The notes below the pieces were generated by a model. The model searched no databases. It had not been told where the DNA came from and saw nothing but the letters and a program-made list of their open reading frames with translations. From NCBI GenBank assembly GCA_964016885.1, contig OZ024743.1:197904001-197968000 (forward strand): DNA of 64,000 nucleotides, written 5' to 3'. Positions within the stretch are counted from its first letter, which is position 1. Each line of letters starts with the position of its first letter. The stretch is from Eledone cirrhosa (lineage: Eukaryota). The position numbers and the translations under genes are program-made. Of the stretch, positions 25,600-60,723 are shown in pieces.

Positions 25600-26072
<473 letters not shown>

Positions 26073-26199
26073 AGCTGTCGAAACGGCCGGAGCTCAGCCG
26101 TCGTGGTCCTGACTCTTACTCTATTACCCACTCTACTATCCTAAGTATTGAGTGCTCTGGTGGTTATGGGCCATCTGGTATCTTACAACACCCTCTCTG

Positions 26200-26276
<77 letters not shown>

Positions 26277-27732: not shown

Positions 27733-27878
27733 TTTTGAGTTTATGTTGGTTGTATACCAACACCTCAGTATGCAGGCTGGAGCACTCGACGAAGTGCGCA
27801 GGTTGGTTTGGTTACTCCGGAGTAGTGTAAAATAAAGTTAAATAAAAGTAAAATGATTAAAATTTAGCTTCGTTTATT

Positions 27879-27933
27879 ACTGCTATATATATTTCAGTGA
27901 CAGCCATCTTTGGCTGTGACCTCTTCAGGCAGT
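27879..27933 (-). ncRNA. Type I hammerhead ribozyme
   Basis: Inverted copy of 28142-28196. Confidence 0.8.
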
Positions 27934-28141
27934 TTGAATTAGTATGGTATAGACAAGTACATATGTTGTTTAGGTGTATGATATTGTCAATACTCTGATA
28001 TGCCCAGTTCCTTGCTGGGTTGTTAATTCACTCCAGTTCCCCAGTGAATTAACAACCCAGCAAGGAACTGGGCATATCAGAGTATTGACAATATCATACA
28101 CCTAAACAACATATGTACTTGTCTATACCATACTAATTCAA

Positions 28142-28196
28142 ACTGCCTGAAGAGGTCACAGCCAAAGATGGCTGTCACTGAAATATATATAGCAGT
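28142..28196 (+). ncRNA. Type I hammerhead ribozyme (palindromic stem III)
   Basis: actgc CTGAAGA ggtcacagcc-aaagat-ggctgtcact GAAA tatata TA^ gcagt; stem I actgc/gcagt. Confidence 0.8.
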
Positions 28197-28240
28197 AATA
28201 AACGAAGCTAAATTTTAATCATTTGACTTTTATTTAACTT

Positions 28241-28272
<32 letters not shown>

Positions 28273-28585: not shown

Positions 28586-29165
28586 ATATTGTTATACTTG
28601 GGGAGGGTCATATTTGTGTAATAATATTGCCAGAATTAATAACAGAACACACTCACTGTTTGGTTGGTTTTCGCTTCTGTGTCTTTTATATCGGTTAATT
28701 TAATTTATTCGGTCCTCGATGTTACCATTCACTGACCAACGGTCAAAAATACAGATACAATATAGACACAAACACATATATATAGTCTAACAAAGTTCTT
28801 GTGTTGCACATCTGCAACATCGTCAGTGGTGCTATTATGTTTCCCCCCGTTCTATTGTATGTCGACCTAGGTAGACATACAATACAACGGGAGGAAACAT
28901 AACTTTGTTAGACTATATATATGTGTTTGTGTCTATATTGTATCTGTATTTTTGACCGTTGTTCAGTCAATGGTAACATTGAGGACCGAATAAATTAAAA
29001 TAACCGATATAAAAGACACAGAAGCAAAAACCAACCAAACAGTGAGTGTGTTCTGTTATTAATTCTGGGTATATTATTACACAAATATGACCTCCCCAAG
29101 TATAACAATATTTGTTTCGACACACGATTTCATATAAAATACCTCGCAAAACTAATTCATCGCCG

Positions 29166-29168: not shown

Positions 29169-29250
<82 letters not shown>

Positions 29251-29298
29251 CCAGTGCATTACTGGTACTATATATATATATATATAGGAACCAGTAAG

Positions 29299-29392
29299 AC
29301 CCCGACAGCTGAGCTCAAGCCGTTTCGACGGCTAATTCTGGACTAAATGTAAATTTATCCTGGTATTTAAATAGCCGATCTTCTCAAGGGGT
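29299..29392 (-). ncRNA. Type I hammerhead ribozyme, U3-A8 core variant
   Basis: acccc TTGAGAA gatcggcta..tagccgtc GAA acggct-tgagctc-agctgT C^ ggggt. Confidence 0.75.
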
Positions 29393-30484
29393 AATTCCAT
29401 ATATGGTCAAAGTGATTGTCAAAAATCAGTAGTAATTCTGTGGTTGCAAATTAGTAGGGGAGATGGTGGCTAAACCTGCCAGTAGGAGAAGGAGGGGAGG
29501 GGGTGGAGTAGACCCAATCAAGCGTTGGTAGTGCCAGCTACAGCTGGGCATGAGGTCAAAGAAGATACAGGGGAGGGGGAGGGGGAGGAAGTCGGAACGG
29601 TAGGTAGAACAATGGGGGGTAGAAATAGGAAAGAAAAAATACTGAGAGTGAAGAAAAGCAAATAAGTGTAAAGAAAAAAGTAAAGTAAATTAAATTCTAC
29701 GACCTAGGTCTCAGGCTATTGTTAGGCTAGAATAAAATAAAGAAAGAAAGAAAGAAGTAAATAAATAAATAAATAAATAAATAAGGAAATAAGTAAGAGA
29801 ACTAGGTGGGACGGATAAGGCAAGGACCCTTTTAAGAGGTATAAGTACGTAAATGATACGGTGACGGGTCAACAAAAGGGGCCAAAATACTAAAGAGACT
29901 ACCACGAAATAAACAATAAAGGTTTCCATCCCGGGCCAGCAACGACCCAGTGCAGCAAAGTGAACTTGTACGAGATAATAATTCTGAGTCCCGAGAAAAA
30001 TAAATACTAATGCTAACTCTAAAAGATCTAAAACAAGCTACATGAAAGTTCGTACGAAATAAAGGTAGAATACGGAGAAATAAATTCAGAATCCACCCCG
30101 CCCAGAAGAAAAGCGAAGCAAGAAATACTGAAACGAAAAAATAAGGCATGTGCCACTAAGAAATATAGAGGGCACAGAGAATAGTGGGAGCGGTCGGAAA
30201 AAGGGGGAAAATATCCGGGGTCTAAGCCAACTGCTATAAAGGGCGGAGTCCGCCAAATCTATCAAAGACTAGGGGAGGGGGGGTGGGGGTACTAAGGCTA
30301 CATGGGGCCAAAGGGCAGCCTCGGGTGGGCGAGAAAAGACGCCGACAAAGGAGAGGAGCTGGGGTAGAAGGACAAAGGAGAGAGGGGGGAAGGAAATAAA
30401 GGAAGCGATAAAAGAATACAAAGAAGATCTTACGTCTTCCTTGGCAAGCAGGGGTTACCCATTGCAAAATCGGCAAGTGGGGTG

Positions 30485-32203
30485 TTATAGCCCTAGTCTA
30501 CCCTCCCCCGGGTCATTATGGGGTTTGAGGGCGAGGTAAGTCCTACGCAATCTATGTTTACATGCAGTGACCAGTTCATCTTTCTTGTTTAGGAGTTGGT
30601 CCGTCGAAAACAGCATTTGTAAAGTTTCCTCCGAGCATAAATTGCACGGACGGCGTCCTCCCGTGTAAGAATTGGCTCTGGACAGTAATCTCCAAGTGAG
30701 ATCATAGGTGATGTTGTTGTCCTTGAGGTCCCATATGTGGCCCGAAAGTGTAGTGGCGTGACGCCGGGCCGGGTTTCGGAAGGTATGTCTATGTTGGTAT
30801 AGCCGGGTCTTGAAGTCACATGCGGTAAGTCCTATATAGGCTTTGTTGGAGGTATCCGTCCTCACGTTGCACTGGTAGATCACATTACGGTCTCTATATC
30901 TATTGTCGAGTGGGCAAATAGATCTATCCGGGCAGTTACACCTCCTGGTCGGTTCTCCACTGCTATTTAGGTTATTTCTGCCATCGGGGTTGAGATTTTT
31001 GTTGTTAGAGGAGACGATGTTTTGTGCGAAGTTTGGTGTAGTGCTGTAAGAGAGTTTGATGGTATTTTTGTTAATTATGTTGTGGTAGCGGTGTTGTAAT
31101 GGGAAGTGTTTTTCAATGAGCCTAAAGAATAGTTTCCCGATGGGAGTTGTCACCTCTGCGTTGTGGGGAGGATTGAACCATGTTACATTGCGTGAGCGGC
31201 GGTGTCTCCTGCTGGTTCCGCTAATGGGAGCTGGACAGTAGGATATTTCCTCCCGGAAACCACTCCACTTGAGGGCCTGGTTGTAATAAGGCGCAAGTTC
31301 ATCGAATATCCGCTCATTAGCTGACAAACGGGATATGCGGAGGGAGATGTTTTTGACCAGGTTGTTTGTGATGTTCCTAGGATGGTTTGATCGGCGGTGG
31401 ATGTAGTGCAGATTGTCATTAGGTTTCCTGTATGGGTAGTACAGGTCGTTTTCGAGGTCGAGGGTCACGTCCAGGAAGTTTACTCGGGTCAGGGACGTTT
31501 GTAGGGTTATTTTAAATCCCCAGTCGCGGAAGAATCTGATTAATTGTTTCCGGACCCGATCTGTACTACTGGGGTTGTACCCTTTAAGGGTAAGGAGCCC
31601 ATCATCACGGTACAATCCACCACCGAATGCAGGAAACATATCAGTGAGTTTGGCTATTAGGAATAATCCTATAAGATCTGTGACCTCCGCCGAATCCGTG
31701 GCGCCCATGCTGACGTCGAAGGGTGAGTCGGGAGCTCTTTTTATCCATTTAGAGTCGTCAAAGAGTAAGACTGTCTTCCTGGCGTGGAGGATGATTTTTC
31801 TTTCCTGGTCGGTGATGGGCACAAGTATTTCGGCGAAGTCCAAGGCGGCAGTAAGTAGCGGTAAGGTGATTGAAGCATAGTAGCTCTCTATGTCGAACTG
31901 TATGAATTTAGTTTCTCGTTTATCCTCCATATTGCTGAACCAGGAGATTACTTCCTGGGTGTTGATCCATAGGCTAAGTCGGGTGTGTTGCTTGACTTTT
32001 GGTATCACGCGGTCTAGGACTTTTTTGCTGATTCTCCCTATGTCGGACTTCGTTGGGTTAATAAGCCTGATAGAGGGTTTACGGTCAAAATCGGATTTAT
32101 GGTCCTTCAGTGTGAAGTATGGTGTCCGTGGGTCTAGAGGTTCCGTGCGGTCGGCGACCCCGAGGCTGGAGGTGATTTGTTGTCCATCTCGATTTATGTC
32201 CAT
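30485..32203 (-). CDS. Penelope-like reverse transcriptase / GIY-YIG endonuclease (N-terminus disrupted)
   Basis: RT motifs FDIESYY, SMGA, YRDDGL, NFLDVTLDL; linker CNCPDRSIC (CxCx5C); VIYQC...YIG endonuclease; CNLCSEE. Confidence 0.92.
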   Translation of the reverse strand: MDINRDGQQITSSLGVADRTEPLDPRTPYFTLKDHKSDFDRKPSIRLINPTKSDIGRISKKVLDRVIPKVKQHTRLSLWINTQEVISWFSNMEDKRETKFIQFDIESYYASITLPLLTAALDFAEILVPITDQERKIILHARKTVLLFDDSKWIKRAPDSPFDVSMGATDSAEVTDLIGLFLIAKLTDMFPAFGGGLYRDDGLLTLKGYNPSSTDRVRKQLIRFFRDWGFKITLQTSLTRVNFLDVTLDLENDLYYPYRKPNDNLHYIHRRSNHPRNITNNLVKNISLRISRLSANERIFDELAPYYNQALKWSGFREEISYCPAPISGTSRRHRRSRNVTWFNPPHNAEVTTPIGKLFFRLIEKHFPLQHRYHNIINKNTIKLSYSTTPNFAQNIVSSNNKNLNPDGRNNLNSSGEPTRRCNCPDRSICPLDNRYRDRNVIYQCNVRTDTSNKAYIGLTACDFKTRLYQHRHTFRNPARRHATTLSGHIWDLKDNNITYDLTWRLLSRANSYTGGRRPCNLCSEETLQMLFSTDQLLNKKDELVTACKHRLRRTYLALKPHNDPGEGRLGL

Positions 32204-32313
32204 CTAAGTCTTTTCGCAAATAGATCGATTTTTTGCGTGAGCATCCGAAGATAAAGTTTTTTCGGTGGGATTGGGATGTTCTTGGTAGAGAAGTCAATGT
32301 TGTGTTTTCGCAT
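32194..32313 (-). pseudogene. Probable true N-terminus of the Penelope ORF, out of frame with the main ORF
   Basis: MRKHNIDFSTKNIPIPPKKLYLRMLTQKIDLFAKRLRWT* resembles the S.KNIP.P...Y...L..K...F..R.RW N-terminal motif; too short for the ORF track. Confidence 0.7.
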
Positions 32314-32414
32314 GGTGCGGGGTCTTACTGGTTCCTATTACCCACTCTACTACCTCAAGTATTGAGTACGTTGGTGCGTTATGGTCCACCTGGTTCCTTA
32401 CCACATTTCCTTCG

Positions 32415-32461
<47 letters not shown>

Positions 32462-32500
32462 CAGTAATGCACTGGATAATTGCTGGCCTTGTGCCTAAAG

Positions 32501-32553
<53 letters not shown>

Positions 32554-41486: not shown

Positions 41487-41563
<77 letters not shown>

Positions 41564-41690
41564 ACAAAGAAGGTATCGTAAGATACCAGGTAGACCATAA
41601 CTCACCAGAGTACTCGATACTTAGGGTTGCAGATCTTTTAGGATCTAACTAGCGAAACGGCCGGAGCTCGGCCGTCGGGGTCCTGCCTTT

Positions 41691-42762
<1,072 letters not shown>

Positions 42763-60464: not shown

Positions 60465-60723
60465 ATTTTACCAGATATTAAGACGAATATTAAGCAGAGT
60501 ACTCCATATTTGGGACAATAGAATGTAAATATATTAAAGAGTCGAGACCCGACAGCTGAGCTGTTGCCATTTCGACTGCAAAATCGAGACTAGGAATAAA
60601 TCTTCATCCACGAATCGGTACGCCAATCACTTTAGGCAGCAACTTTTAATCCTTATCTGGAATTTGTTCTCGAAATGACAAGAGCTTAGCCCTCAGGCCT
60701 CGACTCCTATATACATACATACA

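Follow-up and report, generated by a model that had tools for sequence, protein, structure and literature searches.

Inverted arms of a Hydra-type Penelope-like element in Eledone cirrhosa probably record hammerhead cleavage of template RNA

A Penelope-like insertion and its predicted hammerhead

The window is a 64,000-nt stretch of the Eledone cirrhosa genome (contig OZ024743.1, positions 197,904,001 to 197,968,000). On its minus strand, a Hydra-type Penelope-like element (PLE) insertion runs from 32318 to 29285, bordered by TA repeats on both sides. Positions within the element are numbered from the predicted hammerhead cut: +1 is the first base 3' of the cut (window 29303, minus strand) and -1 is the C before it. 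In intact copies, +1 to +190 forms a 5' UTR running to the ATG. The locus carries the following features.

29246 to 29286: left flank, a TA run with a 22-nt fragment of another repeat
29285 to 32318, minus strand: main arm, from +186 (5 nt before the ATG) through the ORF, 3' UTR and cut site to the short priming site at +19
29299 to 29392, minus strand: type I hammerhead, predicted cut between 29304 and 29303
29388 to 29392 paired with 29299 to 29303, minus strand: hammerhead stem I
29381 to 29387, minus strand: hammerhead core UUGAGAA
29344, minus strand: position -41, a predicted transcription start where family arms pile up with an extra G
30485 to 32203, minus strand: 572-codon frame with reverse transcriptase (FDI, YRDD), CxCx5C linker and C-terminal GIY-YIG-like nuclease (YIGLT, CNLC, CKH)
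32191 to 32313, minus strand: ORF start, separated from the rest by an internal deletion near 32197
32318 to 32321: 4-nt microhomology, CGGG, at the inversion junction
32319 to 32415, plus strand: inverted arm, +1 to +97, lying between the long priming site (+99) and the cut site
32416 to 32502: right flank, a TA run (the target) with a 44-nt repeat fragment that has seven more matches within the window

The inversion junction is less sharp than it first appeared. A sequence-only reading of this locus had the inverted piece starting at the cleavage site with a 1-nt C overlap; the piece does equal +1 to +97, but the overlap, judged against five of five intact 5' UTR copies, is the 4-nt CGGG. 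Because the junction shares 4 nt, the tail-side break might lie anywhere from -1 to +4, and the single locus is ambiguous. Two further details of that reading stood. The main copy ends at +19 (29285) and the inverted piece extends 78-80 nt further, matching the described overhang of about 80 nt, and the ATG at 32313, 5 nt from the inverted piece, serves as the start codon across the family (as in L025). This 80-nt overhang corresponds to the PLE 'tail' known to arise from internal priming and is unrelated to the cut. The main arm crosses the cut seamlessly, without an insert.

The flanks hold an inverted duplication of their own: 29246-29286 and 32440-32480 are perfect 41-nt inverted copies (22 nt of the other repeat plus TA), possibly a templated patch laid down during repair. 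Flank duplication was rejected as a family trait, being found in 2 of 66 other pairs, both of them short matches resembling other repeats. Diverged relatives of the ribozyme-and-tail unit lie elsewhere in the window at 26072-26242, 41543-41711 and 60511-60592, the second of which resembles a short inverted pair. The window also contains a perfect inverted repeat of 205 bp around a 10-nt spacer (27828-28247) and a 197-bp inverted repeat, 95% complementary and set between TA runs (28601-29097), which may be an inverted pair from another family.

The coding region resembles that of endonuclease-bearing (EN+) PLEs. Relative to intact copies, the deletion near 32197 removed about 340-350 nt. A Pfam scan of the ORF returned nothing significant (only RVT_1, E 0.12) and a PDB sequence search gave no significant match; the atlas neighbours of the ORF bear RVT_1, GIY-YIG and HTH_animal at 0.95-0.98. 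The family has the EN+ organisation of a single ORF combining, by motifs, a reverse transcriptase with a C-terminal GIY-YIG nuclease, together with partial tandems, an inverted partner and an optional tail. The Hydra hallmarks are present as well: RWR (RWK-like) and DKT in L025 (the deletion in the window copy removes the DKT stretch), the CxCx5C linker, CxxC and CxH without CCHH, and insertion into (TA)n. The unit length of about 3.5 kb, obtained by adding the deletion and the 5' UTR to the window arm, exceeds the general Hydra length of under 3 kb, which the available description presents as typical and not strict (PMC8557442). Judged by its motifs against that published description, the element is assigned to the Hydra clade of C-terminal endonuclease PLEs (PMC8557442). 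Neptune and Nematis were considered and rejected, as neither the CX2-5CxxC linker nor CCHH is found. Several further variants of the CNC-x-CPL linker were seen among the loci examined, pointing to more Hydra-type families in the E. cirrhosa genome.

The predicted ribozyme continues from its core into a long-looped stem II, GAAA and a stem III capped by a palindromic loop. All 19 of 19 pairs in stems I, II and III are standard and appear in the minimum-energy structure. The core is UUGAGAA, a U3-A8 variant, and not CUGANGA. The 3-8 pair, GAAA, A15-U16 and H17 of type I cores are found in the window copy and in two subfamilies; the CTACTCG and ATACTT groups have C3-A8 in place of the 3-8 pair. 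Changes between subfamilies strike N7, the stem II bulge, loop II and one G-C/G-U pair, and U3-A8 is kept in the two subfamilies that lack the mismatch, with N7 free to change. The Rfam search gave no hammerhead among 51 matches at E <=1, a miss that the long loop II and the unusual core probably explain, and shuffled sequences fold about as stably (z-score -0.42). As modelled, the hammerhead is real as a fold. The CTACTCG subfamily accounts for 8,017 of 19,011 copies and carries the C3-A8 mismatch in 13 of 13 complete hammerheads examined. Such a mismatch is expected to impair hammerhead catalysis; a literature search for the activity of C3-A8 hammerheads returned nothing.

Arms, priming sites and starts across the family

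Family counts rest on exact patterns, with listed matches drawn from the first contigs and several tallies made by hand. A 28-base stretch beginning at +1 has 19,011 exact matches, so the family numbers at least 19,011 copies, and 4,578 arms extend back into the 5' half of the ribozyme. Across 60 loci examined, most insertions consist of two short inverted arms ending at +19 and about +99 within TA repeats. The 5' starts of these arms fall mostly between about -33 and -45, with the main pile-up near -41; the majority of family arms cross the cut site uncut, and starts at the cut were seen in 3 of the 60 loci (the window, L027 and L035). When four contig sets were aligned to L269, only the +19 and +99 ends into TA emerged, with no usable +1 joints.

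The pile-up at -41 has its own signature. After non-family bases, 1,439 arms begin at this position, and the preceding purine is G and not A in 77 of the 100 listed. Some loci carry the extra G on both arms (L202/L203), and up to about 6/22 of the G excess before -41 (30 loci) may stem from the partner arm. We read -41 with its extra G as a probable capped transcription start. Before +1, unlike -41, G stands at only about 29%, with no excess.

Short tandem arrangements were also encountered. L241 holds -44 to +212 twice plus a tail, five matches spaced 273-274 nt apart lie at G000:C3:214146640-214147757, and at other loci an arm beginning at -42 or +1 comes after units whose ends lie at +172 to +316. 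These short units suggest that short RNAs are copied repeatedly, in a retrozyme-like manner. At L267 (= L079), three pieces of one insertion all start at +1: an inverted +1 to +20, +1 to +245 and +1 to +103. An arm ending at +1 is joined to an arm starting exactly at -3 at 12 loci genome-wide. The G run just after the cut is itself variable, with one extra G in about 117 copies and one fewer in about 144; slippage or repair at the cut may lie behind these changes.

Arm ends at the predicted cut

Arm starts are concentrated at the predicted cut. Starts were counted in 2-nt bins, requiring three preceding mismatches, and normalised for the chance of three mismatches. The -1/+1 bin holds 152 arms, to which about 19 genuine starts with G at -1 are added (14 of 100 listed among 136), and raw counts in the neighbouring bins are 98 (-5/-4), 48 (-3/-2), about 88 (+2/+3), 85 (+4/+5) and 109 (+6/+7). 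Normalised values are 212, 140, 191, 149 and 236 for the five flanking bins in the same order, compared with about 615 at -1/+1, so that ends at the cut are about four times as frequent as at neighbouring positions. The +2/+3 and G-at--1 bins were corrected by hand because one-base changes in the G run dominate them (62/100 and 86/100 listed, respectively); the +6/+7 and -5/-4 values are uncorrected and hence upper bounds. Joins in which the partner ends in CCCC, about 205 additional cases, escape this pattern; with these included, arms ending at the cut make up 3-4% of all arms. Background ends occur at every nearby position at about 0.4-0.6% per base. The spike itself is precise, with C at -1 in only about 26% of the -1/+1 arms. 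The enrichment goes against a random distribution of breakpoints, the outcome that would have refuted the sequence-only reading.

The nature of the cutting agent can be approached through the subfamilies. The CTACTCG subfamily contributes 31 of 100 +1 arms, 23 of 98 loci in which both arms end at +1, and 2 of 12 loci with A/T-rich inserts at the cut. Its +1 rate is 0.29%, against at least 0.68% elsewhere, about 2.4-fold lower (p 1e-4), which could fit either a weaker ribozyme or greater age. The persistence of a signal in C3-A8 copies, albeit 2.4-fold weaker, counts against ribozyme cutting and would fit an element or host nuclease that recognises the three-way junction and cuts the same bond, as would the dependence of Anolis hammerhead cleavage on added protein (PMC11167929). 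A protein cut is nevertheless improbable: the bond is exactly the hammerhead bond, U3-A8 is conserved in two subfamilies with N7 variable, the rate is lower in the mismatch subfamily, and in the Anolis study, as available, nuclease mutants still permitted cleavage while core mutants abolished it (PMC11167929).

Partner arms distinguish ends at the cut from ends nearby. Among the 100 of 152 +1 arms listed, 49 partners end at or after +1, 31 are absent, 6 cross the cut locally, 3 bear the ORF (the window, L279 and L294) and 3 are direct units whose ends fall at +200 to +296; 6 more cases are insertions at the cut within a continuing arm and 2 are other (tally corrected by hand for L073, L283, L299, L309, L331 and the insertion cases). 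Crossing partners number 6/100 listed in the +1 class, compared with 32 of 42 examined (of 48) in the -3/-2 control (Fisher p 2e-14), and 15 of 30 examined (of 85) in the +4/+5 bin.

Many insertions end at +1 on both arms. The form GACCCC-spacer-GGGGTC, in which A or T is the first spacer base, occurs at 98 loci (23 + 75), in 92 of which the spacer also ends in a base other than C. Double ends around such untemplated spacers indicate that microhomology is not needed. Among 100 listed of 380 short junctions, tallied by hand with a script agreeing on 30, 32 are of the spacer type, 22 are perfect palindromes, 21 are trimmed, 20 cross the cut and 5 are ambiguous. These junctions bear on the possibility that uncut RNA halts reverse transcriptase, either at the stem III hairpin or in the G run, with joining by microhomology afterwards. 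A 6-bp hairpin does lie directly upstream, and CGG-type microhomology joins do occur (about 20 of the 100 listed short junctions). A stop at stem III should, however, include C-1, and double ends number 0 at -1 (none of 13 matches there has the form) against 98 at +1; stalling also leaves unexplained why inserts lie between C-1 and G+1 and why they go with +1 partners. The absence of -1 double ends largely refutes stalling, which we regard as very improbable.

Inserts mark the other side of the cut. Exactly between -1 and +1, 22 inserts were found, of which 13 (12 loci) are A/T-rich and 5-19 nt long, 7 are of 1-2 nt and 2 are duplications; A/T-rich inserts at control positions numbered 0/8 at +5/+6 and 0/1 at -5/-4. 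Arms running on into the 3' UTR account for 11 of the 12 A/T-insert loci. In the twelfth (L363/L364), both arms of a short insertion carry an identical 5-nt insert, so the insert was already in the template RNA or the source copy. Two of the 11 A/T-insert arms lack a partner; in 8 of the other 9 the partner starts within 2 nt of the cut, and in one at +12. By comparison, of 16 other arms that carry 3' UTR and show a partner, 0 have that partner at the cut (p 8e-6), a control that left out loci chosen for a start near the cut. Another reading would make +1 a second start of transcription, with inserts that are 3' ends of unrelated origin. Transcription starts follow a pyrimidine-purine rule, and C-1/G+1 matches it. 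The lack of a G excess before +1, unlike -41, and the separate coincidence required for tailed 3' ends at C-1 leave a second start scarcely probable at all.

The window copy can be weighed against these classes. Its layout recurs with an insert in L354/L376 and L358, and without one in L294/L375. The window copy alone might instead be an ordinary truncation, joined on 4-nt microhomology that fell at the cut by chance while the family signal is real. The CGGG overlap, the background of ends everywhere nearby and the insert-free crossing of the cut by the main arm all favour chance, and ORF-bearing partners are rare in the +1 class (3/100 listed), which likewise counts against the window as a cut event. 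The recurrence of the layout with inserts and the absence of partners at the cut from 16 unselected 3' UTR-bearing arms speak for cutting, leaving chance truncation somewhat unlikely. The window copy is probably a cut-RNA event with the layout of L354/L376 and L358 but lacking their insert, like L294/L375, a judgement held at that strength because of the 4-nt microhomology.

Proposed mechanism and known systems

The family-wide junctions are consistent with a small share of arms ending at the hammerhead cut because the template RNA was cut there in the cell. We put this at roughly 80%, from genomic junctions, with cut RNA a minor template. Counting against it, besides the signal in C3-A8 copies, are the many family arms that cross the site uncut, the Rfam miss, the unremarkable fold energy and the Anolis results on RNA ends and in vitro cleavage (PMC11167929). 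The claim that such copies record hammerhead cleavage in vivo gains support from the +1 enrichment, the double ends with spacers, the A/T inserts and the coupling of inserts to +1 partners. The inverted piece records the 5' terminus of the product downstream of the cut, and an RNA with its 5' end at +1 and its 3' end at -1 would explain both the +1 starts and the inserts.

Under the proposed mechanism, the element protein would prime two cDNAs near the RNA 5' end, at +19 and +99, one for each end of the broken target. These cDNAs would run off either the capped start (-41) or the ribozyme-made 5'-OH end (+1), and the usual outcome would be two short cDNAs joined into a tiny inverted element. 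Sometimes one cDNA might pass from +1 to the RNA 3' end (C-1, perhaps short-tailed) and go on to copy the 3' UTR and ORF. Candidates for this crossing are a template jump, ligation of the RNA, or a read-through transcript whose 3' copy stayed uncut, and the inserts might derive from RNA tails or from bases added by reverse transcriptase. The window copy may have taken the tail-less route, in which the +19 cDNA crossed the site and continued to +186, the +99 cDNA reached the end of its template at +1, and CGGG served to join the two. Since an RNA starting at -41 would lack the 5' half of the first ribozyme, its cutting would need upstream read-through or the half in its own 3' UTR. A wider scheme, in which the genome would preserve an entire PLE cycle at base resolution, is tentative: short strong-stop cDNAs might run off the cap or the cut end, full or tandem copies might form only after one of them transfers to the RNA 3' end, cleavage might yield a unit-length template, end-to-end transfer might build the pseudo-LTR tandems, and C3-A8 ribozymes might cleave in the cell too.

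Hammerheads occur in most PLEs, and their role is described as unclear or unshown in vivo in the portions of three studies consulted (PMC4209133, PMC8557442, PMC11167929). The inverted partner, tail and hammerhead are known PLE traits; comparable genomic evidence of PLE hammerhead cleavage in vivo was not found in the open literature, and the evidence put forward here, for a known kind of element, is new on that basis and fairly strong. It would provide countable germ-line traces of both cleavage products together with a frequency (a few per cent of insertions), and any genome with many PLE copies could be counted in the same way. The junctions also hint at transcription start and tandem formation, the least understood steps of telomerase-related PLEs.

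The closest described elements are those of the Hydra clade (PMC8557442), with which the family shares the RWK-like motif, DKT, the CxCx5C linker, the lack of a CCHH pair inside GIY-YIG, CxxC and CxH, TA targets, a hammerhead, an inverted 5'-truncated partner and a tail. The unit is longer here (about 3.5 kb versus under 3 kb), as is the tail (80 nt versus 30-40), and the hammerhead core differs in being U3-A8 or C3-A8. In its available text, that description treats the function of PLE hammerheads as unclear and contains no analysis of junctions (Craig et al. 2021, PMC8557442).

Poseidon PAc of Anolis carolinensis likewise extends both target strands, uses two internal priming sites that define the tail, and primes downstream of the hammerhead cut (Frangieh et al. 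2024, PMC11167929). As far as the accessible account goes, no Anolis RNA reads end at the cut and cleavage is not needed in vitro (Frangieh et al., PMC11167929). Unprocessed RNA dominates in E. cirrhosa also, but a 3-4% class would record cut RNA, and a capped start is predicted here within the ribozyme.

The ribozyme itself resembles the minimal hammerheads of other PLEs, which are type I with a long stem II, G10.1-C11.1, a palindromic loop 3 and, in their Cercyon case, the U3-A8 variant (Cervera and de la Pena 2014, PMC4209133); the E. cirrhosa version has a 6-bp stem III and a loop II of about 37 nt. Cleavage followed by ligation into circles has been proposed for PLE hammerheads, with in vivo evidence stated to be absent in the text available (PMC4209133). 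Hammerhead-cut retrozyme RNAs are ligated into circles (PMC7229834), and retrozymes have been linked to PLEs (bioRxiv 10.64898/2026.07.22.740005). Relative to the circle proposal, run-off at +1 in E. cirrhosa indicates that linear templates are used, not circles alone. The HDV-like ribozyme of R2 offers a precedent for reading a cut site from genomic 5' junctions (Eickbush et al. 2013, PMC3774820). R2 differs in ribozyme and element class and its cut makes the standard 5' end, whereas the cut in E. cirrhosa would be a minor route in which both cleavage products are recorded.
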